Below are positions 11,176 through 63,601 of a DNA stretch of 64,000 bases, piece by piece. The stretch's first letter is position 1. The number at the start of each line of letters is the position of its first letter. The stretch is from an uncultured cyanobacterium. Its GTDB lineage: Bacteria > Cyanobacteriota > Cyanobacteriia > Cyanobacteriales > Cyanobacteriaceae. The translations under genes were made by a program, and so were the position numbers. The notes beneath the pieces are model-generated. The model did not search any database. It was given only the letters and a program-made list of their open reading frames with translations, and was not told the DNA's origin. Location of the stretch: positions 96,001 through 160,000 of the forward strand of contig CAVVOP010000020.1 of assembly GCA_963749915.1 (NCBI GenBank), read 5' to 3'.

Positions 11176-11249
<74 letters not shown>

Positions 11250-11304
11250 CTAAAAACCCAGAACCCAGAACCGGAAACCACAAAGGGAAGAGGAAACCGA
11301 AAAA

Positions 11305-11380: not shown

Positions 11381-11484
11381 GAAGAACAAATTAGCACCAA
11401 AAAAATGGCTGCTGAACCGTTGTTCAGTAAGAACCTTGAAAACTGCATAGAAAAAAAGAGGTAAAGCTGTAGAAATTACAGACA

Positions 11485-14267
<2,783 letters not shown>

Positions 14268-14326
14268 CATCTTTAAACCTCAAAAAATCTATGCAGTCTT
14301 GAAGGTGATTTAACTTTCAAAGTCTT

Positions 14327-14444
14327 AGCTGGTGTGTATAGCATTGTGGAACCACTACGATCCATCTCGAACTCGTGGGTGAAACGCAATCGCGGCGACG
14401 ATACTCCTGGGGGGACCCGGTGGGACAATAGTTCCATGCCAGCT
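14327..14444 (+). rRNA. rrf: 5S ribosomal RNA
   Basis: AGCTGGTG...ATGCCAGCT terminal stem, CCATCTCGAACTC motif, about 118 nt. Confidence 0.95.
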
Positions 14445-16118: not shown

Positions 16119-16147
16119 CTTTCTTTCACAACTAAAACTAAATTGAT

Positions 16148-27474: not shown

Positions 27475-30400
27475 TTATTCATTTTGGGTAGATGTTTTTA
27501 GACTAGCAAGAGTCTCCTCTTCCACAATTTGGTCTTTTCGTGGTTCTGACTTACCAGATTTACTGCTCCCTTTAGGGGGTTTTCCTCCTTCAAGAAAATA
27601 CTGTTCAAAGCTCTTAATCACAATATAAAGGTTGGGGACAAACAGCAAACTCAAAACAGTAGAGATGAGCAGTCCACCGAAAACGGCAGTTCCCAAAGAC
27701 CAACGACCAAGTGCACCAGCACCCGAGGCAACCACCAAAGGGAGGAACCCGAACAGGGAAGAAAAGGTCGTCATGAGAATCGGGCGCAAACGCTCTTCCC
27801 CAGCTCTAATAGCTGATTGAGTGATACTCAAACCCAAAGCCCGAGACTGATTCGCAAATTCTACAATCAGAATGGCGTTCTTACTTGCCATGCCAATGAG
27901 CATGACTAAACCTACCTGAACATAAATATTATTATTGAGAATTGGCCAAATCCCTGCCCCTGGATTGAAAGGCAAACCTTGCCACACAGAGCGGAGCCAA
28001 ATTCCGGCTAAAGCACCCAAAATAGCGAGAGGTACGGTGAGCATAATAATGGTGGGGTCAATGTAGCTTTCGTACTGAGCGGCTAAGACTAAGAACACCA
28101 TTACAAAGCCCAGACCAAAGATGATAGGTGCAGCTCCCCCAGCAGATTTTTCCTCTGCTGCGGTGTTTGTCCAGTCATAGCCAAAGCCTGGTTGGAGAGT
28201 TTGTGCTGCTACTTCCTCCATGGCGGCAATTACCTGTCCCGAACTATAACCTGGGGCAGGACCAACATTTATTTTAATTGAGGGAAAAACATTATAGTTA
28301 GTTACAATGGGAGGATAGGAAATAGGTTCCGCGGCCACGAGGTTACTGAGTTGAACCAATGCTCCATCCCGAGAACGGACGTAGAGTTTCGTGATATCTG
28401 TGGGGTTTGCCCGGGAAGTTTTTTCTGCCTGAGCATAAACCCGATACAGGCGACCATCGAGCACGAACTGGTTGACATAGTTGGAACCTAGATAGGTCTG
28501 TAAAGTGGTCATAATTTCGTTAATGTCAACATTCTGTGCCTTGGCTTTATCCCGATCAATATCGGCCTCTAGCATTGGGCTATCGAAGGTAAAAGTACTA
28601 AAGGCAGCAGCGATTTCTGGACGCTTATTGGCGGCTTGGAGCATCCGTTGGGTATTATCGATCAATGCCTCCATGCCTTTTAACTGGCGGTCTTGAATAA
28701 AGATCTCCGAACCACTAAAATTACTCAAACCATCCACAGCAGGGGCATTAACTGCCAGCACTTTGGCTCCATCAATTTTTTCCTGAAATACCTTGTTTAA
28801 CCGATTCATGACACCATAAACAGAATGTTGCGCACCAGGTCGCTCATCCCAAGGTTTTAATTTGATGAAAACAATTGCTTTATTACTGTTCTGACCATCA
28901 AAAGAAAAACCATTTAATACCAAGGCATGTTCGACTTCCTCGAACTTCATCACTTCTGGCAGAACCTGTTGGCTAATTTTGTTAGTGTAGTTGAGAGAAA
29001 CTCCAGCAGGTGCTTCTACAATGCCAAAAAAGTAGCCTTGGTCTTCGTCGGGAATAAATCCTTGAGGTACGATCTGGTACATCCAGCCCGTTGCTACCAA
29101 ACCAGCAATAAATACGGCAACCACAATAAGTTTGAAATGAGTAAGTAATTCCAGCAACCGTCGATATTGTACCGTAACCCAAGCAAAGCCACGGTTGAAT
29201 AGGTTGAAAAACATACCCAGAGGACCTTTGACTTCTTCCTGGGGTTTCATTAAGATCGCTGACATGGTTGGCGAGAAGGAGAGAGCGTTAAAGGTAGAAA
29301 ATGCCACCGCCGCAGCCATAATCAGGGCAAATTGTTTATAAACAACCCCTGTAGTACCAGGGAAGAAGGAGACGGGAACAAAAACTGCAATTAATACTAA
29401 AGAAGTAGCTACCACCGCTCCAGATAATTCCTCCATGGAATCGAGGGCTGCTTGCATTGGCCTCATGCCTTGGGATAACTTAGTTGATACCCCTTCTACT
29501 ACCACAATCCCATCATCTACTACCAGCCCCGTTGCTAGAATTAAGGAGAACAAGCTCATATTGTTGAGAGTGAAGCCCAACGCTAAGGCAGCAATCAATG
29601 CCCCCAGCATGGCTACCGGAATAGCGATCGCGGGAATTAGCGTAGTACGCCAGTCTTGCAAAAAGACGAAGATGACCAGCACTACCAGTGCGATCGCTTG
29701 TATTAGGGTAACAGTCAAATCTGCCAGGGAGGCATTGACAAACAAGGTATTGTCTAAAACCACTGTCTGTTTTAAACCGGGAGGAAAAGATGGCTCTAGC
29801 TCTGCTATTTTAGCTTTGACAGCATTAGCTGTGTCCAGTGCATTAGTGCCAGGAAGTTGATAGATTAACAGAGTTACACCAGGAAGATTGTTGTCAACAT
29901 AGGAGCTAGTATTGTAATTTTCTACCCCCAATTCTGCTCTACCAATATCTCTAACTCTGATCAGGTCGCCATTTTCACCTACTTTCACTACCAGATTTTC
30001 TGCTTCTTCGGCAGTTACGAAGCGACCTTGGACTTTGAGGGGAAACTCAAAAGTTTGCTCAGAGAGAGCAGGTTCTTTGCCCACAGCTCCAGTTCCAACA
30101 TCAAAATTCTGCTCACTAATGGTGTTAACTACGTCCGATGCGGTCAAGCCTCTGGCAGCGAGCTTATCGGGATCGACCCAAATCCGCATCGCATACTTAG
30201 CACTTCCAAAAAGGCTTAGACTACCAACCCCTTTAATCCGTCTGAGATCATTCCAAACATAGCGGTCAATGTAGTTGTTGATAAAAATAGTATCATAGGG
30301 GTAGTTACCGTTGGCATCCTTTTCTGCATAGAAAGCATAGGCTAAGGTAACACTAGGGGATTGTTTCTGGGTTTTCAAGCCTGTAGCAAGCACTGCTTGA

Positions 30401-30768
30401 GGAAGTTCGGCTTGGGCTTGGGCGACCCGGTTTTGCACCAGGACCTGAGCCATGTTGCTATCATTTTCTACGGGAAAGCTGACGTTAATAGTCGCGTTAC
30501 CAGTGTTGTCGGTGTAAGAACTAATCCATTTCGCATCCTCCACCCCGTTGATTTCCCTCTCTAACACGGTGGTTACGTTGTCAATGGTAGTTTTGGCATC
30601 AGCACCAACGTAGTTGGCTGTTACAGCCACCTGCTTGGGGGCAATCTGTGGTAATTTATCCAAGGGAAGCAGTGCCATGGCAATCGTTCCCACCAGAATA
30701 ATGAGAACAGTACAGACCGTAGTTAAAACTGGTCTTTTAATAAAGGGAGTAGCAATGGAAAATAACAT
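27475..30768 (-). CDS. RND efflux permease (HAE1/AcrB family)
   Basis: FIKRPV, AMRIWVDP, GLVVDDGIVVVE, KNAILIVEFA and RLRPILMT. Confidence 0.95.
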   Translation of the reverse strand: MLFSIATPFIKRPVLTTVCTVLIILVGTIAMALLPLDKLPQIAPKQVAVTANYVGADAKTTIDNVTTVLEREINGVEDAKWISSYTDNTGNATINVSFPVENDSNMAQVLVQNRVAQAQAELPQAVLATGLKTQKQSPSVTLAYAFYAEKDANGNYPYDTIFINNYIDRYVWNDLRRIKGVGSLSLFGSAKYAMRIWVDPDKLAARGLTASDVVNTISEQNFDVGTGAVGKEPALSEQTFEFPLKVQGRFVTAEEAENLVVKVGENGDLIRVRDIGRAELGVENYNTSSYVDNNLPGVTLLIYQLPGTNALDTANAVKAKIAELEPSFPPGLKQTVVLDNTLFVNASLADLTVTLIQAIALVVLVIFVFLQDWRTTLIPAIAIPVAMLGALIAALALGFTLNNMSLFSLILATGLVVDDGIVVVEGVSTKLSQGMRPMQAALDSMEELSGAVVATSLVLIAVFVPVSFFPGTTGVVYKQFALIMAAAVAFSTFNALSFSPTMSAILMKPQEEVKGPLGMFFNLFNRGFAWVTVQYRRLLELLTHFKLIVVAVFIAGLVATGWMYQIVPQGFIPDEDQGYFFGIVEAPAGVSLNYTNKISQQVLPEVMKFEEVEHALVLNGFSFDGQNSNKAIVFIKLKPWDERPGAQHSVYGVMNRLNKVFQEKIDGAKVLAVNAPAVDGLSNFSGSEIFIQDRQLKGMEALIDNTQRMLQAANKRPEIAAAFSTFTFDSPMLEADIDRDKAKAQNVDINEIMTTLQTYLGSNYVNQFVLDGRLYRVYAQAEKTSRANPTDITKLYVRSRDGALVQLSNLVAAEPISYPPIVTNYNVFPSIKINVGPAPGYSSGQVIAAMEEVAAQTLQPGFGYDWTNTAAEEKSAGGAAPIIFGLGFVMVFLVLAAQYESYIDPTIIMLTVPLAILGALAGIWLRSVWQGLPFNPGAGIWPILNNNIYVQVGLVMLIGMASKNAILIVEFANQSRALGLSITQSAIRAGEERLRPILMTTFSSLFGFLPLVVASGAGALGRWSLGTAVFGGLLISTVLSLLFVPNLYIVIKSFEQYFLEGGKPPKGSSKSGKSEPRKDQIVEEETLASLKTSTQNE

Positions 30769-30780
30769 AGAATATATTTT

Positions 30781-32139
30781 TTATTTGCTGATAGTTTGTT
30801 CACTTTTAATCGATTCTTCGGTAATCGAAGTTCCATCTTTTAAGTCAAGAATTCTGGTTACAGCTATTTTGTCCCCTTGTTCTAGACCAGAAATAACTTG
30901 ATAACTTTGACCTTGGATAGTTCCTAACTCTATCGGGGTTTGTTTAGCTAATAATTCTTTCTTTCCTTCTGGAGTTTCTTCTTGTTTAGCCACAAAGACA
31001 AATTTTTGTCCTCCCACGGTAGAAACAGCGGTAGTAGGTACTAGCAAACCTGGTCTTGTCTCCCAAATAACTCTCACACGGACATACTGTCTATCTCTAA
31101 GACTATCGTCATTGGGAAAAGTGATTTTGGTCACGATAGATTGGGTATTTGGGTTAACTAAAGGAGCAATATAGCTAACAGCACCTCTAATGCCAGGGCT
31201 ACCATCTTCAGTAACTATCTCAACTGGCAATCCTAGTTTAAGGCGAGATCTTTCTTCGGTGGGAATATTAATATTAAGATTAAAGACCTGATTATTGGTA
31301 ATCGTGGTTATTACTTCACCAAGATTAATCACATCTCCTACTTTTCTTTCATTAAAATCACCTACTGTTCCAGTGATGGGAGCGTTAATGGTATTAAAGG
31401 CAAGATTCTGACTAATGGAACCTAATTGTGCTTCTGCTCTGGATATAGAAGCTTTTTGACTCTCAACATTAGCTTGGGCTTGTTCAATTCGCTTTTCCGC
31501 TGCTTGGAGAGATTTGATACTGGCATTAAGAGCTTCTTTTCTGGCGTCAAGACGAGCAATTTGGGTATCAAGGTCGCGGGTTTTGTCATCTAAGTCTTGT
31601 TGGGGTAAGGCACCACCTTCCACAAGAAATTTAGACCGCTCGATGTTGATTTTAGCAAGTTTTAATTGAGCTTCTTGATCTTGGATATCGGCCTTGGTTC
31701 TTTCAACCTCTGCGGCACTTCTAGCCTGATCTGCCTCTGCTTCTTTCAGTTGAGCTTGAACTTGACCTAGTCCAGCTCTTTCTACATTGACATTTTCTGT
31801 GGCGGCATTGACATCTTCTTGTTCTTGAGTTGGTTCTAATTCAACAATAGGATCCCCTTGGACAACGCGATCGCCTTCCTGAACAAAAATCCTGAGAATA
31901 CGTCCCTGAATTCTTGGTGCTAAATTAACTCTTTGTTTAGCTTCAAGGGTCCCAACGTATTGACTACTATCAATGAGAGTAGTCCTTTCTAATGCTTGTA
32001 ATTTTACTGGCACAGCTTTAGGTCCAGTGGCTTGAGAGTCTGGTTCTCCACTGCCACAACCAGAGAGGAGAACAGGTAGTATGAACACCGCTCCCAGTAT
32101 TTTCTGGGTAAAAGTATTTTTAGGTTTAGGTTTAATCAT
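30781..32139 (-). CDS. RND efflux periplasmic adaptor (lipoprotein MFP)
   Basis: Lipobox LSGC, PRIQGRI...V.EGD, INAPITG; 12 bp upstream of the permease. Confidence 0.92.
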   Translation of the reverse strand: MIKPKPKNTFTQKILGAVFILPVLLSGCGSGEPDSQATGPKAVPVKLQALERTTLIDSSQYVGTLEAKQRVNLAPRIQGRILRIFVQEGDRVVQGDPIVELEPTQEQEDVNAATENVNVERAGLGQVQAQLKEAEADQARSAAEVERTKADIQDQEAQLKLAKINIERSKFLVEGGALPQQDLDDKTRDLDTQIARLDARKEALNASIKSLQAAEKRIEQAQANVESQKASISRAEAQLGSISQNLAFNTINAPITGTVGDFNERKVGDVINLGEVITTITNNQVFNLNINIPTEERSRLKLGLPVEIVTEDGSPGIRGAVSYIAPLVNPNTQSIVTKITFPNDDSLRDRQYVRVRVIWETRPGLLVPTTAVSTVGGQKFVFVAKQEETPEGKKELLAKQTPIELGTIQGQSYQVISGLEQGDKIAVTRILDLKDGTSITEESIKSEQTISK

Positions 32140-33634: not shown

Positions 33635-33669
33635 ATTTACAGTGAGGCTAGCCCAATTTTGCGACCAAG

Positions 33670-33702
33670 AAAAAAAGGCCAACCAAAATTAATTGATTAG
33701 CC
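33670..33702 (-). terminator. Intrinsic terminator of the ycf46 operon
   Basis: Minus strand GGCTAATCAA-loop-TTGGTTGGCC followed by T7. Confidence 0.7.
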
Positions 33703-33740
33703 CTAAAAATTGGGAACGCACTTTCAGAAAATAGATTCCA

Positions 33741-34091
33741 TTACTTGAGAACTAACTTGACGTTAGCGTTTTGTAACCCACGTTGCTTAACTTCGCCCAA
33801 AGTTTTATTAACCGCATATTTTTGATTAATGGAGTTAATTAACTCAGTTTGATTATGTTTTTTAGCAACGCCCCAGAGATCCGCGATCAAGTCAAAGCTA
33901 CCGTCTGTATTGCGAGACCAACCGAGATCGTATTCTCCTTCTAAAACAGCTACTATATCAGCACGAAGACGTTGACCATTATAGCCACGAACATCAGCAT
34001 CAGTTTTGACACTAATACCGAGATCACGCAAGGAACCAGTTAAAATTTCCGCAGAAGTGATTTTGGTGCGTAAGGTACTGAAATGAGACAT
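33741..34091 (-). CDS. DUF1257 (Ycf35/Slr0376-like) protein
   Basis: MSHFSTLRTKI...VRGYNGQ...DLIADLW...INQKYA; directly downstream of ycf46. Confidence 0.88.
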   Translation of the reverse strand: MSHFSTLRTKITSAEILTGSLRDLGISVKTDADVRGYNGQRLRADIVAVLEGEYDLGWSRNTDGSFDLIADLWGVAKKHNQTELINSINQKYAVNKTLGEVKQRGLQNANVKLVLK

Positions 34092-34209
34092 TGGTATTTC
34101 CTCCTAAGAGATTAAAGACAACTTTTTGATTTTAAGATGCACATAAAGTGCTTTTCATTCAACTGTTAGCCCTTAAGCTAACCTTTCTCCAAAAATGAGA
34201 GAAAGACTG

Positions 34210-35730
34210 TTAAAACGACCTGCGTTGATATTCCTCAACGGAGGCTGACCCAGGTCTAGCTCGTTGTCGAGCCCAGTCTCGTAGCGCTGTGACCTGTTCT
34301 GTCATCGTACGGGACAGAGGTAGTGTCGATTTGACGGCAGCAATGATGTCCAACTGTGTAAACTCTCGCCCTTGGGCAAAAGCCTCGTACATAGCGGCAA
34401 CAATGGCCTGTTCAATCTCTGCCCCGGAAAAACCTTCTGAGACCTTGGCTAATTGTTCTAAGTCAAAACGACCGATATCGGAACGACGTTTGCCAAGATG
34501 AATATTGAAAATCGCTTCTCGCTCTTGCCCACTGGGCAAATCCACAAAAAAGATCTCATCAAAACGACCTTTTCGCAAAAACTCCCCTGGTAATTTTTCT
34601 AAACGGTTAGCGGTCGCCATCACAAACACAGGAGAATTTTTTTCTTGCATCCATGTCAGGAATGAACCGAAAATTCGACTAGATGTCCCACCATCAGAAT
34701 CACTGGAACCAGCACCACCGGCAAAAGCCTTGTCTAATTCATCGATGAATAATATTGCCGGAGAAATGGATTCCGCCGTTTTCAAAGCACTGCGCAGATT
34801 TGCTTCCGATTTCCCTACCGTTGAGCCGTCATAGACTCTACCCATATCCAACCGTAGTAAGGGCAATCCCCATAACTTGGAGGTCGTCTTCGCAATTAAA
34901 GACTTTCCACAACCGGGAACCCCTAAAATTAGCATTCCTTTGGGTTGGGGTAAGCCATAGGCTCTGGCTTTTTCCGTGAAGGCTTCCGAACGTTGGGTTA
35001 ACCAGTGTTTTAGCTCTTCTAAACCCCCTACTGCATTGATAGTTTCGTCTTCTTCAATATAATCAAGGATGCCATTACGCCGAATTAGTTGTTTTTTCTC
35101 AGAAAGGACGATTTCAACTTCATTTTCTGTTAATTGTCCCCCTTTGATCTGAGCTTTACGATAAACTTTTTCCGCTTCATCGATAGTTAAACCAAGGGCG
35201 GCCCTGCGCAATTTCTCTTTGACTTGCGGTTGAAGTTGCTTGCTTTTAGTTTTCTTTAATGCCCTTTCCAATACCTGATCTAGCTCATGGGCCTGAGGCA
35301 GAGGAAAGTCCAACACCACTAAATCTTTTTCTAGTTCTAAAGGTGTTTGCTGATAGGGTGACATCAAGACAATTATTTTATCTGTTCCCTTAAAACTAGC
35401 AATGGCATCTCTCAACCATCTTGTTACCGGGGGCGATTCTAAATAAGGATGTAAGTCTTTGAAGATGTAAATCCCCGCCTCTTTTTGTCTGACAACCCAC
35501 TCAATGGCCGCTTCGGGGGAAACCGTGTTGTGTTGTACAGAGGTCGAATTTTGTTGACTGCATTCAACGATTCCACGGGTTACTGTCCACACAAATAGCC
35601 GACGAGATCCCTGATTAGGTAATTCATTCAATATAGTCCCAATGGCTTCCTCTGCACGTTCTTCTTCCGAAGTCACTAGGTAAATCAAGGGATATTGAGC
35701 TTTGATAAGAATGTTTAACTCTTCTTTCAT
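34210..35730 (-). CDS. ycf46: Ycf46-family AAA+ ATPase (Slr0374-like)
   Basis: Start MKEELNILIKAQYP (35730); GVPGCGKS, LFIDELDK and LRKGRFDEIFFVDLP. Confidence 0.9.
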   Translation of the reverse strand: MKEELNILIKAQYPLIYLVTSEEERAEEAIGTILNELPNQGSRRLFVWTVTRGIVECSQQNSTSVQHNTVSPEAAIEWVVRQKEAGIYIFKDLHPYLESPPVTRWLRDAIASFKGTDKIIVLMSPYQQTPLELEKDLVVLDFPLPQAHELDQVLERALKKTKSKQLQPQVKEKLRRAALGLTIDEAEKVYRKAQIKGGQLTENEVEIVLSEKKQLIRRNGILDYIEEDETINAVGGLEELKHWLTQRSEAFTEKARAYGLPQPKGMLILGVPGCGKSLIAKTTSKLWGLPLLRLDMGRVYDGSTVGKSEANLRSALKTAESISPAILFIDELDKAFAGGAGSSDSDGGTSSRIFGSFLTWMQEKNSPVFVMATANRLEKLPGEFLRKGRFDEIFFVDLPSGQEREAIFNIHLGKRRSDIGRFDLEQLAKVSEGFSGAEIEQAIVAAMYEAFAQGREFTQLDIIAAVKSTLPLSRTMTEQVTALRDWARQRARPGSASVEEYQRRSF

Positions 35731-35789
35731 GGGATCGACCTCTATTTTGCTTAGGCAGTTACTGTAATCGCTAACATGACTGTCACCAT

Positions 35790-36134
35790 TTAGCAAGGGA
35801 TTAACTCTTCTTGTCCTTGAGTCCCTGCAATGATCTCTGTTTTTTCACCGATCAGGGGAAACTCTTCATCAACGATACTGGGTTGATTTTTGAGAGAAAT
35901 CATCTCCCCGTCACGCATCACCATTGCGGCACTACATTCGGGGCAAACGTGGACTTGATGAGTTTTTCCGTAACTCGCTTCTAATTCCTCTACCACTTCG
36001 GGATGTTTCAAGTAGAAGCTGAGGGCTCTTTCGACAAGTGCTGACATAGAATCAGTATCGATGGCCGCTTTTACTTTCAACTGACGATGCAGTGTTGGTG
36101 GAAGATAAAGAGTAACTTTTTGCTTTTCTTGCAT
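35790..36134 (-). CDS. Ribbon-helix-helix protein with CxxC (Slr0373-like)
   Basis: KQKVTLYLPP.LHRQLKVKAA (RHH) and VHVCPEC; first gene of the ycf46 operon. Confidence 0.75.
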   Translation of the reverse strand: MQEKQKVTLYLPPTLHRQLKVKAAIDTDSMSALVERALSFYLKHPEVVEELEASYGKTHQVHVCPECSAAMVMRDGEMISLKNQPSIVDEEFPLIGEKTEIIAGTQGQEELIPC

Positions 36135-36173
36135 ATTCGCTGTTATTTGATATGCCCGGGTGCGATATTGATT

Positions 36174-36248
36174 AATTTAACTCTTTTTTTTTCCACTGTC
36201 AAGCGGTCATCCCGTTTTAATGGTAATATTGTTACAAAACTTAATAAA
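36174..36248 (-). promoter_or_regulatory. Sigma70-type promoter of the ycf46 operon with upstream HLR1-like direct repeat
   Basis: Minus strand TTGACA (36197-36202), 17 bp, TAAATT (36174-36179). GTTACAAA-AC-TTAATAAA at 36231-36248 resembles an RpaB HLR1 site. Confidence 0.45.
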
Positions 36249-36343
36249 TGAAATTTTAGAAAGATGGTTGTTTTCTTTATAACCTATATTCGGCAGGTTA
36301 TGTTCGGAATGAGTTATTTATAGAGAGTTCTATATCCAAAGTA

Positions 36344-37258
36344 CTATTCTAATGTGATAATTGTGCCGCGATCGCCCCTTAAAATTTCCGCGACATCTTG
36401 CAACTGACCAATTGCCGCCATACCCATCGTCGTAGTCTTAGCCTTGACAAAATTACAAGCCGCTTCGACCTTCGGTTGCATCGAGCCAGGAGCGAAGCTA
36501 TACTTGCTTAACTGCTGTGGAGTTATTGTGGAAATTGGTTGGGCTTCTGGAGTACCCCAGTTATGGTAAACCGCATCCACATCAGTCAATAGCAGTAAGG
36601 CATCCGCCTGTAAATCCTTTGCCAGTAATGCTGTAGCTAAATCTTTATCGATAACGGCTTCAATGCCACAAATACTCCCTGCCGGAGTAACAACAACGGG
36701 TATACCACCACCGCCGGCACAGATGACCAATGCTCCCACTTTTACCAATAACCGGATTGTTGGTAATTCCAGAATGCGCTTGGGTTTGGGAGAGGGGACA
36801 ACGCGGCGATAGCCATTGCCATCGGGGGCCACTGCCCAACCTCTTTCTTTCGCTAAATGTTTAGCTTCCGTCTCTGAATAAACTGAACCAATGGGTTTAG
36901 TAGGACAAGCAAAAGCAGGATCCTCAGGGTTTACTTCGATCTGGGTGAGGAGAGTGACTATTTGTTTTTCTGGTAGTTGATTGCAGAGTTCTTGTTCGAT
37001 TAGATAACCGATCGCCCCTTCTGTCTCCGCATCTAGTACATCTAGGGGATAGGGCTTGACGCCCTTGTAGGCTTCGGCTTGCATTGCTAAAAGTCCCACC
37101 TGGGGTCCATTACCGTGGGTAACTACCACCTGATGTTCTCTAGCAACAACAGCGATGGCTTTGGCTGCCAGCTGAATATTTTGTCGCTGTATTTCTACTT
37201 CTGGAGGTTGACCACGCCTAATTAGGGCATTACCCCCCAAGGCAATAACTACGAGCAT
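36344..37258 (-). CDS. arcC: Carbamate kinase
   Basis: VIALGGNAL, THGNGPQVG, PTKPIG, RRVVPSPKP, GGGGIPV, EAVIDKD and GSMQPKVEAA. Confidence 0.95.
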   Translation of the reverse strand: MLVVIALGGNALIRRGQPPEVEIQRQNIQLAAKAIAVVAREHQVVVTHGNGPQVGLLAMQAEAYKGVKPYPLDVLDAETEGAIGYLIEQELCNQLPEKQIVTLLTQIEVNPEDPAFACPTKPIGSVYSETEAKHLAKERGWAVAPDGNGYRRVVPSPKPKRILELPTIRLLVKVGALVICAGGGGIPVVVTPAGSICGIEAVIDKDLATALLAKDLQADALLLLTDVDAVYHNWGTPEAQPISTITPQQLSKYSFAPGSMQPKVEAACNFVKAKTTTMGMAAIGQLQDVAEILRGDRGTIITLE

Positions 37259-37264
37259 GATCGT

Positions 37265-38635
37265 CTATCCTCCCAAGTTTTTACGGGCGAGAAATTGCTC
37301 TATTTCGGCGGATAATCTCGGTTCTCCTCTCTCAGCAAATTCATAGTGGGCGCGGACCACTGGCTTATTAAGTGTCATCAGAGAACTAAGATCGCTGGGA
37401 GTGGCTGCCACTACTACGTCAGCTTCGGCATTGTTAATGGTATCCTCCAATGCTTTTAGTTGGGCGGGAAAATAACCCATGGCTGGCAATACCGGGCCGA
37501 TGTGGGGATAGCGGGCATAAACTTCGGCAATTTCTGGAGCAGCAGAAGCTCTGGGATCGACAATTGCTGCAGCGTGGGCACGAATAGCAGCTACATAGCC
37601 TGCACCATAGGACATGCCACCATGAGTGGTAGTCGGACCGTCCTCTACTACTAACACGCGACGATGGCACACTGCTTCTGGATTGTCCAACTGGATTGGG
37701 GAGGCACCACGAACAATCACTGCTTGGGGATTAACCTTCTTCACTGTATCGCTAACTCTCTGTATGTCAGCATCAGCTGCCGAATCCACTTTCGCAATAA
37801 TGACAATGTCTGCCATCCGCAACACGACTTCCCCTGGGTGGTGAGTAGTTTCATGTCCAGGACGCAATGGATCGACTAAAACAAGGTGTAGATCGGGTTG
37901 AATGAAAGGAAAGTCATTATTACCGCCGTCCCAGAGGATAATATCTGCTTCTTGTTCTGCTTTCTGGACGATTAACCCATAATCGACTCCAGCATAGACT
38001 ATGTTACCAACCGCTAGATGGGGTTCGTATTCTTCCCGTTCCTCAATTGTACACTCGGCTACATCTAAATCTCCTTTAGTCGCAAACCGTTGTACAATTT
38101 GCTTTTCTAAATCCCCGTAAGGCATGGGGTGACGGATAACTGCTACTCGCAAACCTTTTTCTCGCAGTAGCTTAGAAAGCCAACGGGTAGTTTGAGACTT
38201 ACCACAACCAGTCCGCACCGCAGAAACAGCGATTACTGGTACTTGGGCTGGTAGCATGGTTCGTTTGGGACCTAAAAGTAAGAAATCTGCACCCGCTACC
38301 ATTGCTCGCGATGCGAAATGCATCACTTGGGAGTGAGTCAGATCGCTATAAGCAAAGACCACAAAATCTATTTGCTCTCGACGACAAAGAGATTCTAATT
38401 CTGTTTCCTCAACAATAGGAATACCTTGAGGATAAAGGGAACCCGCTAGCACACAAGGATAGCGGCGATTCGCAATGCCCGAAATTTGTGCTGCGGTAAA
38501 AGCCACCACTTCCACTTCTTTGTCATGGCGGTATACCTGATTGAAATTGTGAAAATCTCGACCTGCTGCCCCCATAATGACAATTCTAGAAGGGGATCGA
38601 GCAGTACTACTTGGCGATCGCATTTGACCCTCCAT
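37265..38635 (-). CDS. arcE: P-loop protein of the cDPG-synthetase-like/'GTPase' family; probable arginine synthetase ArcE
   Basis: MGAAGRDFHNFN, P-loop AVRTGCGKSQ, RHPMPYGDL, TIEEREEYEPH, WDGGNNDFPF and EDGPTTTHGGM.YGAG; 6 bp upstream of carbamate kinase. The ArcE assignment is from recalled family similarity plus synteny. Confidence 0.72.
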   Translation of the reverse strand: MEGQMRSPSSTARSPSRIVIMGAAGRDFHNFNQVYRHDKEVEVVAFTAAQISGIANRRYPCVLAGSLYPQGIPIVEETELESLCRREQIDFVVFAYSDLTHSQVMHFASRAMVAGADFLLLGPKRTMLPAQVPVIAVSAVRTGCGKSQTTRWLSKLLREKGLRVAVIRHPMPYGDLEKQIVQRFATKGDLDVAECTIEEREEYEPHLAVGNIVYAGVDYGLIVQKAEQEADIILWDGGNNDFPFIQPDLHLVLVDPLRPGHETTHHPGEVVLRMADIVIIAKVDSAADADIQRVSDTVKKVNPQAVIVRGASPIQLDNPEAVCHRRVLVVEDGPTTTHGGMSYGAGYVAAIRAHAAAIVDPRASAAPEIAEVYARYPHIGPVLPAMGYFPAQLKALEDTINNAEADVVVAATPSDLSSLMTLNKPVVRAHYEFAERGEPRLSAEIEQFLARKNLGG

Positions 38636-38751
38636 AAAATATATCCTTATAATCCTTTTATTTGTCGTCTTAACAGTTCGTTTTCATTTACTAAGAGCTT
38701 GGGTTCTAAGTCATTGCGCTCACTTTTAACAAAGGTTGTCCAGACCTAACC

Positions 38752-38760
38752 ATTATACCA
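38752..38760 (-). promoter_or_regulatory. Extended -10 promoter element upstream of arcE-arcC
   Basis: Minus strand TGGTATAAT about 120 bp upstream of the arcE start. Confidence 0.4.
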
Positions 38761-38871: not shown

Positions 38872-41124
38872 TTAGTATTCTTGGGCTTCTACTACGGCGA
38901 TCGCCGTCATATTAACAATGGAGCGAATATCACAATCTTTTTGTAAAACATGAACTGATTTTTTCATCCCCATTAAAATTGGTCCTATGGTTTGAGAACC
39001 ACCTAATTCCTGTAATAGTTTATAGGCAATATTGCCTGAATTAAGATCGGGAAAAATGAGAATATTCGCATCACCTTTAATCGCTGAAAAAGGATAATTT
39101 TCTTGGACAATATTAGGATTGACCGCCGTATCAGCCTGCATTTCTCCATCAATAATTAAGTCCGGTTGACGTTTTTTAACAAGGTTGATCGCATCTTTAA
39201 CTTTATTACTCAAAGGATGAGGGGCACTGCCAAAATCAGAAAAGGAAAGCATGGCAACACGAGGTTGTAAGTTTAATCTTTGGGCTAATCTGGCACTTTC
39301 AATGGCAATATCCGCTAAAATTTCTGCCGTGGGATTAATATTTACCGTCGTATCCGCAAAAAGGTAGACCCGACGTTTTAATAACATAATATATAAACCG
39401 GAAACATATTTAATATCAGGACGAGTACCGATAATTCGTAAAGCCGGGCGAATGGTATCGGGATAGGCTTGAGTTAAGCCGGACACCAAACCATCAGCAT
39501 CCCCTAAATGTAGCATTAATGAACCGAAAATATTAGGCTTAAGGATTTCTTTTCGTGCTTGTTGTAAAGTCATCCCTTTTCTTTGTCTGAGGTTAAATAA
39601 TTCTTGAATATAAAGATCACTGTGAGAAGCCGTAGCTGGATCTACAATACTCAGATCAGGCAAATGTAAACCTAATTCACCAATTTTTGCTTTGATCTGA
39701 GCTTCTGAGCCGATTAAAATGGGTTGGGCAATCTTTTCTTCCATTAAGATTTGACAAGCAGTGAGAATTTTATTCTGATCTCCTTCTGGGAAGACAATTC
39801 TTTTCGGTGCTGTTTTAGCTTTATGAATAGCTTGGCGGATAATTTCTTGATCTACACCCATCCGTTTTTCAAGGGTTTCTTGATATTGCTCAAGGTTTAA
39901 GGTAATACGGGCAACTCCCGTATCCATGGCGGCTTTTGCTACTGCTGGGGTCACCCAAAATAAAACCCGATTATCAAAGGGTTTGGGAATGAAATATTCT
40001 CGCCCGAAGGCTAAATTTTTTAGTCCATAGGCTCTTAAAACGGAGTAAGGTACATCTTGTCTCGTTAAATTAACTAAAGCCCCAACAGCAGCTATTTTCA
40101 TGGCTTCATTAATTTCTGTTGCTCTTACATCTAACGCACCTCGGAAAATAAAAGGAAAACCCAACACATTATTAACTTGGTTGGGATAGTCAGATCTTCC
40201 TGTAGCAATAATGAGATCACTACGGGTTGCTTTAGCTAGATGATATTCAATTTCTGGATCGGGGTTAGCTAGGGCAAAGACGATGGGATTAACCGCCATT
40301 GATTTTACCATTGCCGGAGTTAAAATATCTTTGATGGATAAACCAATAAAAACATCTGCTCCTGCTATGGCCTCAGCTAAAGTTCGAGCCTTGGTATCAT
40401 TAGCAAACTGAACTTTGTACGGGTTCAGATGCTCTGTTCTTCCTTGATAAATAACTCCCATGCGATCGCACATGATTAAGTTTTCTCTTTTTACCCCTAA
40501 AGTTAAATGGAGTTTTGCACAGGCGATCGCAGCGGCACCTGCCCCACTATAAACTACCTTCACCTGATCAATTTTTTTCTGTGCCACTTCCAAGGCATTA
40601 ATTAAGGCAGCTCCGGTAATAATTGCTGTACCATGTTGATCATCATGAAAGACAGGAATTTTCATTTTTTGTCTCAGTTGTTCTTCAACATAAAAACTAT
40701 CGGGAGCTTTAATATCCTCTAAATTAATCCCACCAAAAGTAGGCTCAAGGCATTTAACCGTATTAATAAATTCTTCGAGATCTTCGCTCTGAATTTCTAA
40801 ATCAAAAACATTAATATCGGCAAATCGTTTAAATAAAACCGCTTTCCCCTCCATCACGGGTTTAGCCGCCAAAGCTCCTATATTACCTAGTCCTAAAACG
40901 GCTGTACCATTTGTCACCACCGCCACTAAATTGCCCTTTGTGGTGTAATCATAAACCTTTTTTGGGTCTTGGTGAATTTGACGACAGGGTTCAGCCACCC
41001 CCGGAGTATAAGCAAGGGCTAGATCTCTTTGAGTAGTAAAGGGTTTAGTGGCATTTACTTCTAATTTTCCGGGGCGATCGTATTGGTGATAGTGGAGGGA
41101 ATCTTCGGATAGGGACATAAGCAA
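38872..41124 (-). CDS. maeB: NADP-dependent malic enzyme with C-terminal PTA-like domain
   Basis: [31 protein letters not shown] and [13 protein letters not shown], followed by a PTA-like domain ([26 protein letters not shown]); 750 aa. Confidence 0.95.
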
Positions 41125-51424: not shown

Positions 51425-51690
51425 TTCATATTAGAAGAGTCCATCAGAGGGTCAAAAATAAGTAAAAGCAAAGCAATTATAAAAAACAAAATAAATTGAG
51501 AAAAAAAGGTTTAGGCAAAAGAGGTGAAGTCTGTTGTTTTCTTCCCTTTCTGGCGAGTATCATCAAGGTTAAATCATAAGAATTGTATCTATTTTGCTCA
51601 TTACCTTTTTAAATTTGCTATGAATTTGCTATGACAAAGTATAGGTAGTGGGGGAAACACTAAATGTCAGCAAGGGCTAGAAATCGCAAA

Positions 51691-54600
51691 ATGATTAAAT
51701 ATGGGAAAAACTTGATCTTGAGTGCCATTGTTTGTATTATTATCGTCGGCTGTAATTTTGTGAGTCTTCAAGGAGGAAAAGAGCGTCTTCCATCTGTGTC
51801 TTCCTTACCCTTGCCAATTTTACCTAATTGGATTGAACAAATTACCCCTACGGGGGAAGCTAAACCTTTATCGCAAATTCTAATTCGTTTTAAAAATCCG
51901 ATAATTCCCCTTGAAAAGCTAGATACGCCCCAACAAAAGAATCTATTAAGCAAGTTTGAAATATTGCCCCCCTTAGCCGGTCGGTTTCGTATTTTAACGC
52001 CGAAAATGGTGGGTTTTCAAGCAGATAAAGCACTGCCAAAAGCCACAAGAATTAAAGTTACTTTAAAAACAGGTTTGTCAGACTTAGAAAATAATCGTTT
52101 AGAAAAAGATTTAGCTTGGACATTTAACACTGAAGTAATTCAAATAACAAATTTACCCGGCAGAACAAAAGACTCCGAACAAGAAACAGAACCCATTGAT
52201 ATTAGGCCGACCTTAGAGTTTAATTCTAATGTTGAATTGGATCCGGTTTCTTTACAAGATAGTATAAGTTTAATCTCCACTGAAAATCAAGATAAAATTA
52301 ATTTAAAAGTTGAATTAAAACCTGAAGACACTGACACGGAATATCCTCAAAATTCTTCACAAAAATTTGATCCTTCATCCCGTGAATGGATTTATACTAT
52401 TAAGCCCCTAAAAACCCTAGATAAAGCCACTACTTATCACCTAGACTTTGCTGAGGGTTTACGTCCCATTGATGGTAATTTACCCAGTGAATTTCCCTTT
52501 TCTAGTGAATTATTTACCTATGCACCTTTAGCATTTGCTCAAATAGAAAATTATGGAAAACCTGATCAATATGGAGCTTATGGACGTTTTGTTAAAGGTA
52601 GTCCTCAATTAAAATTTAATAACGGCTTAATGGCCACATCAGCAAGAGAAAATATTACCATTAATCCTACCCCAAAAAAAGCCATTAAATTAGTCCAAGC
52701 TTATGATGAAAATAAGATCGTGAGCCTTAATCCCTGGGCATTAGAGCCAAATACAAACTATACAATTACCATCGCTTCTAAACTTCAGGATAAATTTGGT
52801 CAAACCTTGGATAAACCTGTTACCGTAGAATATCAAACAGGAGATATAGCTCCAGAAATATGGGCTCCTAGTGACTTAAATATTTTTCCCTCAGAAACTG
52901 ATTTACAATTGAATATTTCTACTGTAAATTTACCTGATTCTCAGTATCAAGCGGCTTATAAAATTATTCAACCAGAGGATTTAGTTTATATTGATTCCGC
53001 TTATCCTAGTGGGCAAGATAAAGATTTATTACCTAACTCAAAAAATTGGTTAACTTCCTCTACAAAAGGTAAAAAAAATGAAGTTTATGATAATGTTATT
53101 CCCTTAAAAGAAAAGCTAGAAAATAACACAGGAATGTTGGCTTACGGAGTAAAAGCAAAGACAAATAGTTATGAGGAAAAAGGTGAAACATTGTGGCGAG
53201 AACCTGAATATTATGGCTTAGTACAATTAACCAATTTGGGTGTATTTGCCCAATGGTTTCCTGAGTCAGGTTTCGTTAAAGTTCATCATTTATCTGATGG
53301 TTCTGCGGTGAACAATGCTAGGGTAGAAATCTATGAATCAAAACTAGAAAATAAAGGGGACAAATATCCCCCAAAACCTTGTGCCATTACTCAAACTGAT
53401 GCAACAGGAACAGCAATTATTCAAGGAGAAAATTGGCAAAATTGTCTTGTGAATAAGGAACCGCCAAAACTATTAGTAATTGTTAGGGAAAATGAAGATT
53501 GGGCATTTGCCAGAACTAACGAATATAGTGGTGCTTACGAATATGGAATTAATGCTGGTTGGGATGAAGGAAAACCGTTATCAAGAGGTGTTATTTTTTC
53601 CGATAGACAATTATATCAACCCGGGGAAACTGCTTGGTTTACCGGTACCGCCTATTACTTAAAAAATGGGATTTTGCAACAAGATAAAAATATTTCTTAT
53701 CAAATAACTTTAACCAATCCTGATGGTAAAGAGGTTAATTTAGGTAAGCAAATTACTAACAAATTTGGCACGTTTTCCTTGAAACTACCCTTGGCTAAAA
53801 ATCAACCATTAGGCAACTATTCTATGGTAGCAAAAGGGGTAAATGGCGTTGAAATTTATGGAGATTTTCGAGTAGCTGAATTTAAGCCCCCTAATTTTAA
53901 AGTTGACCTACAATTAGATCAAGAATTTGCTTTTATTGATCAAAAAATAACCGTTAATACAGAGAGTAATTACTTCTTTGGTTCTCCAGTACAAGGAGGC
54001 AAAGTTAATTATTATGTCACCCGACAAAAAGCAGATTTTACCCCTAAAAATTGGGACAAATTTAATTTTGGTCGCCAATGGTTTTTTCCTGAAGAACCAC
54101 CAGAAGTACCTAATAATGTGTTGCAAGGTAGTGAAATTTTAAATACAGTGGGTAAAAATACTCAGCAAATTGCCGTGGCTAAAGATTTAGCTTATCCCAT
54201 GACTTATCAAGTGGAAGCACAAGTTACAGATGTTTCTAATTTATCAGTATCCAATTCTAAAACTTTTACCGCTTTGCCCAGTGATAAATTAATTGGTTTA
54301 CAAAGTGATTTCGTGGCAAATTCAGGACAGTCTTTTCCTGTTAAGTTGATTGTGACGGATGCGACAGGGAAGGTTATTACTGGCGAAAAAATTAAGATAG
54401 AATTGCAATCCATGAATTACAGCAGTGTCACCCAGTTAGAGGAAGGAAGTCGCATTTCTCGTCCACAAGTTGAATATAAAACAGTGGCACAACAGGAAAT
54501 AACTTCTAGTGATGAACCCCAGACAATTTCCTTTACCCCTCCCGATTCTGGTTCCTATCGTATTCAGGGCAATTTTGTTAATAGCAATAATGACATTACA

Positions 54601-57399
54601 GCCACAGATTTACAAATTTGGGTAACAGGGAATAATCAAGTTAGTTGGGGCGATCGCTTTGATAATAATCGTTTAGAAATTCAACTAGATAAAGAAACCT
54701 ATCAAGTAGGGGAAACAGCAACAGCTTTAATACAATCCCCCTATCCAGAAGCAGAATTATATTTTGCCGTCATTCGCCATGATACCCTTTATCATACTAC
54801 ACAAAAAGTAACAGGGGGTGCTCCTAAAATTCAATTTACCGTTACCCCTGAAATGTTGCCTAATGCTGCCGTTGAAGCGGTTTTGGTTCGTCAAGGTACA
54901 TCGTTAGCACAAACTGAACCCGGTAGCGTTAAAAATTTAGTTCGCATTGGTTTTGCACCCTTTAACCTCAACTTAGATAATCAGTATTTGCAAGTAAAAG
55001 TTATTCCCCAAGAGGCACGACAACAACCTGGCACAAAGCAAACCGTTGATTTAGAGTTAAAAGATAATCAAGGAAATCCCATTGGGGGACAATTTACCTT
55101 GATGGCAGTTAATGAAGCTGTATTACAATTAACGGGATATAATCCTCCAGATTTAGTAAAAACTGTTTACGCTGATCAAGATATTTCTACTCGCTTGGCT
55201 GATAATCGCCCTGAAGTAGTCTTGACTTCTCCTGCTTCCCCACTACAAAAAGGTTGGGGATACGGAGGCGGAGACTCTGCTGGAATTGGTGATACACAAA
55301 TTCGCAAAGATTTTCGAGCCTTAGCTTATTATAATGGCTCTATTTTGACTGATATTAACGGAAAAGCTAGTGTTAATTTTACCCTGCCTGATGATTTAAC
55401 TACTTGGCGAGTGATGGTAGTTGCTACGGATGGAGACTTGCGTTTTGGCAATGGGGAAGCAACTTTTATCACTCAAAAACCTCTTGCTACTAATCCTATT
55501 TTGCCTCAATTTGTGCGTTTGGGCGATCGCTTTTTGGGTGGTGTTGCTGTGACAAAGACCACGGAAAAACTTGGTAATTTAAGTATTAGTGCTAATGTGT
55601 CAAATAATTTTAGTTTTACCGAGGATTCTCGACTAAAAACTCAGGCAGAATTAGGGACAAAAGCCTATCGTTTCCCCATGACCGCTGATAAAATTGGTGA
55701 AGGAAAAATACAATTTTCTACGAACTTAAATAACCAACAAAAAGATGCTTTTGAGGTTCCTTTAGAAGTTAAAAATTTAGAAGTAACAGAACAGGTAATA
55801 ACATCAGGGATAACAGCTAATGAGGTTAAAATACCTTTAAATATTGATCCTCAAGTAAGACCTGATGTAGGAGGCTTAGAAATAATCTTAGCAAGTACCT
55901 TAATTCCTGAAATTAATATCACCGCTAAGCAAGTTTTTACGGCTGATGAATTGCCCTTTTTAGAACCCTCTGCCAGTCAATTAATGATTGCCGCAAATTT
56001 GCAAATTCTCAGGGAAAAATATCAACTAACTTTGACAAATTTTGAGCCTCTAAAAGAGGCTAATCAAGCCTTAGAAATTATCCAAAATTTACAGAAAGTA
56101 GATGGTGGATTTGCCTCATTCCCACAGGGAGAAAAATCAGATCCTTTTCTAACGCCCTATACTGCCAATAGTTTAGCACAAGCAAAATTAGCGGGATTTA
56201 AAGTTAATCCAATCCTATTAAAATCTCTTACTAATTATCTAGAGAAAATTTTAGCTAATCCAAATCCATCTAATCTTTGTAATACCTCAGTTTGTAAAAA
56301 TCAAATCCGTTTAGATGCTTTAATTGCCTTAGAAAAATTAGGAACAAAACGTGCAGACTTTTTAGAATCTTTATACGAGCAAAAAAATGAATTTGATTTC
56401 GTCCATCAGATTAAATTAGCTCGTTATCTTTCTAAATTTCCCGAGTGGCAAACCGAGACTGAAAATCTCACTAACAACATTCAAGAAACTATTTATACAA
56501 CAGGAAGAAATGCTACCGTAAATTTACCTGCAAATTGGGATTGGTTGGACTCTAAAACTACGGCACAAGCACAGGCATTCCGTTTATTTATTGCTCAAAA
56601 AAGTGCTCCTGAAAATTTAGACCGTTTATTAAAAGGATTGTTGGCAATGAGACGGAATGGTTTATGGAGTAATAGCTATGATAATGCTCAAGCTTTAACT
56701 GCTTTAGTTGAATATAGCCAATTACAACCAACTCCCCCTGATTTTCAAGCCACCGTTGAACTCAAAAATAAATTATTAGGAAATGTTCAATTTACAGGAT
56801 ATAAACCTTCTAATTATGACCTAAAAATTCCTCATCAAAATTTACCCAATGGACAAAATAATCTCATCCTACAAAAATCCGGTGAAGGCATGTTACATTA
56901 TTTAACAGCCTATAGTTATCGCTTACCCGGAAATCAACCGGGCCGCTTAAACGGATTGCGGGTTACTCGTTATATTCGTCCAGCTAATCAAGAGAATATC
57001 TTGGAAAAATTGGGACTTTATGCACCAGATAAAACCGTAACTTTACCCGTCGGACAAATATTTGATTTAGAATTAGAAATTATTACCGATCATCCTATTA
57101 ATCATCTCATCATCAATGATCCTCTTCCGGCAGGATTAGAAGCTATTGATAGCAATTTTCAAACATCTGGTAGCTATTTTCAACAGCAAGAAGATAGTTG
57201 GCAAATCAACTATCAACAAATCTATAAAGATAAAGTAGTGGCCTATGGCGATCGCTTAGAAGCAGGGGTGTATAATTTACATTATCTAGTGCGCTCAGTT
57301 ACTCTCGGAACTTTTGATTGGCCAGGGGCAGAAGTTCACTTACAATATGCCCCCGAAGAATTTGGGCGCAGTGCCTCCACAAAATTGGAGATAAAATAG
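51691..57399 (+). CDS. Bacterial alpha-2-macroglobulin family lipoprotein
   Basis: About 1900 aa; lipobox IIVGC; FSDRQLYQPGE, FRVAEFKPPNF, LPDDLTTWRVM, DPLPAGLEAID and YAPEEFGRS. Confidence 0.92.
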   Translation: MIKYGKNLILSAIVCIIIVGCNFVSLQGGKERLPSVSSLPLPILPNWIEQITPTGEAKPLSQILIRFKNPIIPLEKLDTPQQKNLLSKFEILPPLAGRFRILTPKMVGFQADKALPKATRIKVTLKTGLSDLENNRLEKDLAWTFNTEVIQITNLPGRTKDSEQETEPIDIRPTLEFNSNVELDPVSLQDSISLISTENQDKINLKVELKPEDTDTEYPQNSSQKFDPSSREWIYTIKPLKTLDKATTYHLDFAEGLRPIDGNLPSEFPFSSELFTYAPLAFAQIENYGKPDQYGAYGRFVKGSPQLKFNNGLMATSARENITINPTPKKAIKLVQAYDENKIVSLNPWALEPNTNYTITIASKLQDKFGQTLDKPVTVEYQTGDIAPEIWAPSDLNIFPSETDLQLNISTVNLPDSQYQAAYKIIQPEDLVYIDSAYPSGQDKDLLPNSKNWLTSSTKGKKNEVYDNVIPLKEKLENNTGMLAYGVKAKTNSYEEKGETLWREPEYYGLVQLTNLGVFAQWFPESGFVKVHHLSDGSAVNNARVEIYESKLENKGDKYPPKPCAITQTDATGTAIIQGENWQNCLVNKEPPKLLVIVRENEDWAFARTNEYSGAYEYGINAGWDEGKPLSRGVIFSDRQLYQPGETAWFTGTAYYLKNGILQQDKNISYQITLTNPDGKEVNLGKQITNKFGTFSLKLPLAKNQPLGNYSMVAKGVNGVEIYGDFRVAEFKPPNFKVDLQLDQEFAFIDQKITVNTESNYFFGSPVQGGKVNYYVTRQKADFTPKNWDKFNFGRQWFFPEEPPEVPNNVLQGSEILNTVGKNTQQIAVAKDLAYPMTYQVEAQVTDVSNLSVSNSKTFTALPSDKLIGLQSDFVANSGQSFPVKLIVTDATGKVITGEKIKIELQSMNYSSVTQLEEGSRISRPQVEYKTVAQQEITSSDEPQTISFTPPDSGSYRIQGNFVNSNNDITATDLQIWVTGNNQVSWGDRFDNNRLEIQLDKETYQVGETATALIQSPYPEAELYFAVIRHDTLYHTTQKVTGGAPKIQFTVTPEMLPNAAVEAVLVRQGTSLAQTEPGSVKNLVRIGFAPFNLNLDNQYLQVKVIPQEARQQPGTKQTVDLELKDNQGNPIGGQFTLMAVNEAVLQLTGYNPPDLVKTVYADQDISTRLADNRPEVVLTSPASPLQKGWGYGGGDSAGIGDTQIRKDFRALAYYNGSILTDINGKASVNFTLPDDLTTWRVMVVATDGDLRFGNGEATFITQKPLATNPILPQFVRLGDRFLGGVAVTKTTEKLGNLSISANVSNNFSFTEDSRLKTQAELGTKAYRFPMTADKIGEGKIQFSTNLNNQQKDAFEVPLEVKNLEVTEQVITSGITANEVKIPLNIDPQVRPDVGGLEIILASTLIPEINITAKQVFTADELPFLEPSASQLMIAANLQILREKYQLTLTNFEPLKEANQALEIIQNLQKVDGGFASFPQGEKSDPFLTPYTANSLAQAKLAGFKVNPILLKSLTNYLEKILANPNPSNLCNTSVCKNQIRLDALIALEKLGTKRADFLESLYEQKNEFDFVHQIKLARYLSKFPEWQTETENLTNNIQETIYTTGRNATVNLPANWDWLDSKTTAQAQAFRLFIAQKSAPENLDRLLKGLLAMRRNGLWSNSYDNAQALTALVEYSQLQPTPPDFQATVELKNKLLGNVQFTGYKPSNYDLKIPHQNLPNGQNNLILQKSGEGMLHYLTAYSYRLPGNQPGRLNGLRVTRYIRPANQENILEKLGLYAPDKTVTLPVGQIFDLELEIITDHPINHLIINDPLPAGLEAIDSNFQTSGSYFQQQEDSWQINYQQIYKDKVVAYGDRLEAGVYNLHYLVRSVTLGTFDWPGAEVHLQYAPEEFGRSASTKLEIK

Positions 57400-60291: not shown

Positions 60292-60355
60292 ATCGTTCAT
60301 CTGCAAGAGCGGACGGAAGTAAGAAGTGATAAGTTCTTCTGAAGGAACGCGCCTC
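60292..60355 (+). ncRNA. Glutamine riboswitch (glnA motif, class I)
   Basis: ATCGTTCATC...GACGGAAGTA...CTGAAGGAACGCGCC consensus. P1 is CGTTC (60294) with GAACG (60345). CGCCTC (60350-55) is complementary to the SD region GAGGCG (60382-87). Confidence 0.92.
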
Positions 60356-61897: not shown

Positions 61898-61953
61898 AAT
61901 TTTTTACTCTAGTTTTCTTCAGATACCAAATTGTTCTGTTTTTATTTTTCTCT

Positions 61954-63522: not shown

Positions 63523-63601
63523 AGTTTACTCCATCTTGAGATAGACTATTTTTGAGTTTGGCTGTGGAAATTTAAACAAAATTTTGGTTATTTTTATATT
63601 G

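Follow-up and report, generated by a model that had tools for sequence, protein, structure and literature searches.

Arginine catabolism in cyanobacteria is described through the ArgZ/AgrE, decarboxylase and oxidase routes. A different entry reaction is reported for Thermococcus kodakarensis, in which ArcE (TK2200) interconverts arginine + ADP + Pi and citrulline + NH3 + ATP (PMC11032458). According to the same paper, arcE homologues occur throughout the Thermococcales, Pyrococcus furiosus being named as a holder, and its Discussion includes Cyanobacteria, e.g. Synechocystis, in the homologue set; homologues were accepted at BLASTP E<1e-100 to TK2200 (SI Fig. S10 legend), and those of the cyclic 2,3-diphosphoglycerate synthetase CpgS are described as weakly similar to ArcE (PMC11032458). 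We analysed a stretch of 64,000 nucleotides from an uncultured cyanobacterium of the family Cyanobacteriaceae (assembly GCA_963749915.1, contig CAVVOP010000020.1, positions 96,001 to 160,000), hereafter the window, in which the gene of a P-loop protein directly precedes arcC, the gene of a carbamate kinase. By its sequence, the P-loop protein is a member of the ArcE family and not of CpgS, and the arcE-arcC pair is probably a self-contained catabolic cassette that would give two ATP per arginine.

The comparison with TK2200 was made by proxy, the proteins of P. furiosus (P0340) and T. chitonophagus (P0343) standing in for it. The window protein matches both over its full length with a high score (555-558 bits, 60% identity, no gaps, 434-435 amino acids). 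The two proxies are 96% identical to each other, and both are 84-100% identical to other named Thermococcales proteins. All 56 columns that are conserved in at least 90% of 42 other aligned members are kept by the window protein, together with the family motifs GxxGRD (N-terminal), RTGxGKS (the P-loop), RHPMPYG, EEREEYEP, WDGGNND and EDGPTxTHGG; the motifs quoted in the preliminary description of the locus (GAAGRDFHNFN, RTGCGKSQ, RHPMPYG, EEREEYE, WDGGNND and EDGPTTTHGGM) were all found in the 456-residue translation. An identity of 47-64% to a family member was obtained in each of the 80 distant archaeal and bacterial loci fetched by a contig scan seeded with P0129, none of them from Thermococcales, and among 1.84 billion cluster representatives there are 3406 relatives at E<=1e-3 and 572 at E<=1e-30. 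Since each cyanobacterial holder has a single full-length copy (E<=1e-20), we infer that the cyanobacterial homologue meant in the Discussion of PMC11032458 must be of the same family as the window protein.

The proposed grouping with ArcE rather than with CpgS is borne out by the contrast between these scores and those of CpgS, which is the best sequence match among solved structures with only 21.6 bits (E 9e-4, over 84 residues) and reaches 72.5 bits with a profile of 43 family sequences; both matches are partial and weak. Pfam and NCBIfam give marginal P-loop matches only (cobW 21.4, hypB 22.1 and lpxK 20.5 bits). The AlphaFold model of the ArcE-like protein (predicted local distance difference test 93.4, predicted template modelling score 0.91), whose sole low-confidence stretch is residues 1-10, has CpgS 8ORU as best fold (Foldseek E 3.4e-17, 12% identity, 12-13% in the fold alignment) and LpxK 4EHY as second best (E 2.1e-10, 14% identity, target template modelling score 0.64). 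The latter is the LpxK entry that the discoverers matched to their TK2200 model (PMC11032458, section 8), and the predicted structure of the window protein is thus of the LpxK-like P-loop kinase fold expected for TK2200. No ArcE structure was among the PDB matches of the sequence, profile and fold searches.

The downstream gene had been called a clear carbamate kinase, and it is one: its product passes the curated cut-offs of NF009008 (471.1 bits, cut-off 361, residues 1-303) and of TIGR00746 (373.2 bits, cut-off 358.25), and it is the single over-cut-off copy in the whole genome, which is 100% complete in 34 contigs. The open reading frames (ORFs) and the letters of the junction also confirm that the 456-residue P-loop ORF ends 6 bp before it. 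The stop codon TAG of arcE (37267-37265) is followed by the spacer ACGATC (37264-37259) and by the ATG of arcC (37258-37256), and GGGAGG (37274-37269), the putative ribosome-binding site of arcC, falls within the 3' end of arcE, an arrangement typical of translationally coupled genes, as arcE and arcC are predicted to be. The ArcE-like protein may start four residues downstream of the first ATG, at a second ATG at 38623 with GGAGGG just 5' of it, which would give 452 amino acids. A canonical terminator was not found 3' of arcC, where there is only a 7-bp hairpin without a T-run.

Table 1. Features of the arcE-arcC locus (positions in the window).
Feature	Position	Strand	Basis
arcE-like gene, P-loop protein, 456 amino acids from the first ATG	37265..38635	minus	ORF list
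arcC, carbamate kinase, 304 amino acids	36344..37258	minus	ORF list and curated models
arcE/arcC junction: GGGAGG, stop TAG, 6-bp spacer, ATG	37259..37274	minus	direct sequence reading
extended -10-like element TGGTATAAT	38752..38760	minus	consensus match only

The association of the two genes extends beyond the window. In a sample of 401 evenly drawn genomes of the phylum, searched for ArcE-like genes, arcC and PF02274, an ArcE-like gene (E<=1e-20) is present in 14 genomes, from 9 of 155 genera, and arcC (E<=1e-40) in 10, five of which are above the curated cut-off. All ten arcC holders lie within the 14 ArcE holders and none among the remaining 387 genomes; related genomes are not independent observations, those with both genes spanning six or seven genera. 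The arcC gene lies directly 3' of arcE on the same strand in five of the five genomes of the window's taxonomic order that hold both genes (G000, which is the window's own, G228, G184, G113, G146), and the gap between them in the other four is 0-15 bp or is replaced by a small overlap; in G010 and G025 the two genes are on separate contigs, and the contigs of G022, G064 and G133 are fragmentary. A natural fusion, the metagenomic protein P0125 (766 amino acids), joins a carbamate kinase (residues 3-309, TIGR00746, 336.9 bits) to an ArcE-like domain (residues 320-753, 49% identity). The flanks of the 80 distant loci contain arcC in 11 cases and ornithine carbamoyltransferase (OTC) in seven (one of them weak, 29%), both being present in five. 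A strong PF02274 match was found in eight genomes of the sample, none of which holds arcE or arcC, and this exclusion agrees with the complementarity of ArcA and ArcE reported by the discoverers (PMC13260591). Genomic association with arcC and complementarity with arcA are thus both observed, while arcB is non-adjacent.

The mechanism we propose combines these two enzymes with a third one encoded elsewhere. ArcE, by orthology to the T. kodakarensis enzyme, would convert arginine, ADP and Pi to citrulline, NH3 and ATP. The single OTC of the genome would then perform the phosphorolysis of citrulline to ornithine and carbamoyl phosphate, and ArcC, presumably translated from the arcE message, would transfer the phosphate of the latter to ADP, giving ATP and carbamate. 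The net result would be two ATP per arginine, produced by substrate-level phosphorylation. The arginine would come from cyanophycin or protein and not from outside, because no arginine/ornithine exchanger was seen nearby: as anticipated in the preliminary description, neither arcB nor arcD was seen in the window (Pfam, 34 of the 37 ORFs of at least 120 amino acids, the three at 60995-63967 lying outside the scan). The OTC is indeed encoded on another contig (C8, 418.4 bits; a second match of 100 bits is below the cut-off). The suggested genome search for cyanophycin genes found a cyanophycin synthetase (cphA, 1257.5 bits) and two cyanophycinases (cphB), one of which (328 bits, C20:177483-178223) lies on the same contig about 44 kb from arcC, outside the window.

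No match to the arcA-type deiminase family PF02274 was found in the window's own genome. To read the absence of PF02274 as an absence of ArgZ was rejected, since PF02274 matches only 17 of the 401 phylum genomes and ArgZ is found by PF04455, its C-terminal domain, which is present in 139 of 151 genomes of the order, the window's genome included. The ArgZ in question is an ORF of 705 amino acids that scores 1381.5 bits with NF052231 (bifunctional arginine dihydrolase/ornithine cyclodeaminase, cut-off 1025) and 1233-1270 bits with the solved Sll1336 and Alr4995 structures. Since a full ArgZ is present, ArcE would be an addition to it and not a replacement, and it is most likely a second, catabolic arginine route. 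The presence of a biosynthetic route and of the ATP-neutral ArgZ makes the cassette most likely an optional catabolic branch, which would be used at high ADP with respiration or photosynthesis off.

The direction of the pathway deserves to be weighed against its reverse, in which carbamate kinase would make carbamoyl phosphate, OTC would make citrulline and ArcE would fix ammonia, so that arginine and cyanophycin could be made cheaply (2 ATP to ADP) under an ample supply of ammonium and ATP. The ArcE reaction is reversible, and its standard free energy towards catabolism is only -6.8 kJ/mol; T. kodakarensis can use ArcE to grow on citrulline plus ammonium, and the discoverers suggest a biosynthetic role where argG or argH is missing (PMC11032458); the window's genome, moreover, stores cyanophycin. 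By the discoverers' own criterion, however, the canonical biosynthetic genes carB (1522 bits), argG (569.5 bits) and argH (682.4 bits) of this genome argue for catabolism. The kinetics of the assayed enzyme also argue for it, since its Ks for ammonium of about 110 mM is far above the usual cellular levels and its activation by ADP is sigmoidal (PMC11032458, section 12). In Synechocystis the carbamate kinase transcript is higher in arginine-grown cells (PMC2242806), and in T. kodakarensis carbamate kinase is unable to replace ArcE/ArcB as a source of carbamoyl phosphate (PMC13260591). Finally, arcE appears to be coupled to arcC, whose product uses up carbamoyl phosphate, and the synthetic direction together with ArgZ would close a futile cycle. 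We therefore consider the synthetic direction unlikely.

It is equally improbable that ArcE and OTC mainly supply carbamoyl phosphate or ornithine for anabolism (pyrimidines, the cyanide ligands of [NiFe]-hydrogenase, proline), the ATP gain and carbamate kinase being secondary. In T. kodakarensis the genetic data show a requirement for arcE and arcB in the absence of pyrimidines, arcC being dispensable (PMC13260591), and the ArcE holders of the phylum sample that have no arcC would fit such a role. Against it, the canonical carB means that carbamoyl phosphate is not limiting here, the putative coupling ties arcE to a gene whose product destroys carbamoyl phosphate, and ArgZ already gives ornithine and proline.

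There is little likelihood that an enzyme of the ArcE family acts here with a different specificity on another guanidino or ureido substrate, such as homoarginine, canavanine or a citrulline analogue. A single member has been assayed in a family with thousands of cluster representatives, and the text of the ArcE paper, as far as it was available, does not give residue-level determinants of the substrate (PMC11032458); but the gapless identity to the Thermococcales proteins and the conservation of every family column speak against a changed specificity, and the exclusive co-occurrence with carbamate kinase fits a citrulline-forming step. Least credible, and very improbable indeed, is the reading given by public annotations, namely a cyclic 2,3-diphosphoglycerate synthetase or a regulatory GTPase. 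It draws on the labels 'cyclic 2,3-diphosphoglycerate synthase' or 'predicted GTPase' of close relatives, on CpgS as the nearest solved fold and on the weak cobW/HypB Pfam match, whereas CpgS is far too distant in score and identity, the RHPMPYG, EEREEYEP and EDGPTxTHGGM segments of ArcE are unaligned to it, and identical labels sit on Thermococcales ArcE-type proteins, which makes them propagated names. That the family usually carries such labels had been noted at the outset and is seen in the names of relatives that include Pyrococcus and Thermococcus proteins. These names look like a propagated and widespread misannotation which hides the ArcE family.

Several points weigh against the catabolic cassette that we favour. 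Citrulline phosphorolysis is thermodynamically uphill, and the single OTC that would have to perform it is presumably anabolic. ArgZ already degrades arginine in the same cell. Four of the 14 ArcE holders (G068, G170, G122, G182), 99% complete, have no arcC, and arcC is not nearby in 69 of the 80 distant loci; such genomes and loci indicate that carbamate kinase is not strictly required by ArcE. The window protein is linked to the characterised TK2200 via the Thermococcales relatives, and only one member of the ArcE family, from a hyperthermophile, has been assayed so far (PMC11032458). The claim of novelty in cyanobacteria stands in that no characterisation of a cyanobacterial ArcE member was found in full-text literature searches; it does not stand for the family as such, which PMC11032458 already notes in Cyanobacteria, so that the novelty is limited. 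The TGnTATAAT element that had been pointed out upstream of arcE is present (TGGTATAAT, about 115 nt before the arcE ATG in an upstream spacer of 236 bp), but as a candidate promoter it is a bare consensus match: no -35 hexamer is present, and a promoter scan of the region gave 16 sites, the element not among them, against a shuffle mean of 14.9. The spacer also contains no NtcA-type GTA-N8-TAC site with at most one mismatch.

If the catabolic cassette operates as proposed, cyanophycin-derived arginine could be a fermentable fuel in dark, anoxic mats or sediments for a minority of unicellular and baeocystous cyanobacteria, a possibility that we put forward only tentatively and regard as rather doubtful. 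An ADP-gated ArcE, followed by OTC and carbamate kinase, would then provide two ATP per arginine while bypassing the ATP-neutral ArgZ. If true, this would account for the restriction of carbamate kinase in the phylum to genomes with ArcE. The ArcE step being near equilibrium, these enzymes might also refill the arginine pool in the light.

The borders of the cassette were examined in related genomes. An ArcE-like gene is found in none of six other genomes of the window's family, two of them from the same genus. In these two the nucleotide homology (81%) covers only window positions 33667-36250 and ends about 94 bp past the arcC stop codon, and the flanks of eight other cyanobacterial loci have nothing in common with the window except arcE, and arcC where it is present. 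From the differing flanks and the end of homology beside arcC it follows that the cassette consists of two genes at a synteny break. No conserved transporter or regulator was found near arcE by Pfam among 20 neighbouring ORFs of those eight loci. On the arcC side, a three-gene block at 33741-36134 (-) encodes an slr0373-family 'blue light stress response' protein (NF052617, 170 bits), an AAA+ ATPase and a DUF1257 protein, and this block has the 81% nucleotide identity in the two same-genus genomes. Upstream of arcE and on the same strand, at 38872-41124 (-), lies the gene of a 750-residue malic enzyme/phosphotransacetylase-like fusion (MaeB type), for which the two same-genus genomes offer only a 51% match over the first 410 residues or so; it may be strain-variable as well. 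G228, which is the closest complete relative that has the cassette, encodes a class-III aminotransferase (PF00202, 262 bits, L117:11276-12577, minus strand) on the arcE strand, some 0.9 kb upstream of that gene; this enzyme could take ornithine onward.

In a FastTree phylogeny of 129 rows, 17 proteins from photosynthetic-lineage cyanobacteria come together in a single clade (support 97) within a group of bacterial proteins, and three proteins of other lineages in the phylum are placed elsewhere. The tree and the patchy distribution fit one putative acquisition followed by loss or by transfer within the group; the tree was midpoint-rooted without a CpgS outgroup, and the direction of transfer cannot be read from it. 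The earlier impression that the gene pair is richer in G+C than its surroundings is correct, both genes having a G+C content of 0.48 in a genome of 0.375, which places them at the 96th percentile of 2034 long ORFs. At third codon positions their G+C reaches only the 86th-91st percentile of the same ORFs, and the excess, which is real, largely reflects amino-acid composition. One sediment metatranscriptome, available as contigs, contains two short pieces identical to arcE (37961-38180 and 38536-38647), and none of its contigs covers arcC or the junction; these pieces show neither transcription nor co-transcription of the cassette.

The window also contains a complete rRNA operon at 9620-14444 (+), with 16S (9620-11105), 23S (11485-14268) and 5S (14328-14444) genes and two tRNAs (11176-11249 and 11305-11377, +). 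A glutamine riboswitch aptamer (RF01739, 55.2 bits, gathering score 35) is located at 60292-60353 (+); in cyanobacteria, glutamine riboswitches precede the gene of the glutamine synthetase inactivating factor. The four intervals 1673-2560 (-), 14592-19345 (+), 27475-32139 (-) and 51664-57399 (+) jointly hold a DDE transposase, two RND efflux pump/adaptor pairs and a bacterial alpha-2-macroglobulin of 1911 amino acids.

The strict co-occurrence and the apparent coupling of the two genes suggest a candidate partner for the carbamate kinase of cyanobacteria, long an orphan, and they lead to the testable idea that some cyanobacteria gain substrate-level ATP from their nitrogen store. Sll1336 reportedly proved in later work to be a dihydrolase, and the carbamate kinase of Synechocystis thereby lost its citrulline-forming partner. 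Synechocystis sp. PCC 6803 presumably carries the cassette as sll0572/sll0573, with sll0572 as the putative homologue of arcE. Of 24 cyanobacteria surveyed in 2007, Synechocystis was the only one in which a carbamate kinase was found, and the survey placed Sll1336 at the centre of an arginine deiminase pathway (PMC2242806). Sll0572 is called a 'potential GTPase' in a 2025 proteomics paper (PMC12454622), and the name ArcE itself had been given to an arginine/ornithine exchanger in 2016 (PMC5300872).

In conclusion, the cassette can be set beside four described systems. With CpgS of Methanothermus fervidus (PDB 8ORU, 8ORK, 9SXB) the window protein shares a P-loop superfamily, a similar length and the nearest solved structure; CpgS differs from it by an identity of only 12-13%, by the lack of the ArcE-specific motifs, by its own P-loop and Walker-B sequences, and by another substrate and biological context. 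ArgZ/AgrE (Sll1336, Alr4995; PDB 6JUY, 6LRF) is likewise an entry enzyme of arginine catabolism and is present in the same genome, but it is of unrelated fold, hydrolytic, yields no ATP and is nearly universal in the order, whereas the ArcE-like gene is confined to a small part of the phylum sample. The arginine deiminase pathway (ArcA-ArcB-ArcC with the ArcD exchanger) has the same OTC and carbamate kinase steps and the same end products; here neither arcA nor arcD nor a dedicated arcB was seen in the window or beside the cassette, the first step would be carried out by a P-loop ATP-forming enzyme and not by a hydrolytic deiminase, and the yield would be two ATP against one. The closest system is the ArcE-ArcB-ArcC pathway of T. 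kodakarensis (Michimori et al. 2024, PMC11032458; 2026, PMC13260591), with which the cassette has in common the family and length of its first enzyme, an LpxK/CpgS-like predicted fold as reported for TK2200, the association with carbamate kinase, an OTC encoded elsewhere and a genome without arcA-type PF02274. The host of the cassette, by contrast, is a mesophilic oxygenic phototroph with full arginine biosynthesis, ArgZ and cyanophycin, and whereas TK2200 and TK2158 have distant locus numbers, arcE and arcC of the window appear to form one translationally coupled cassette.

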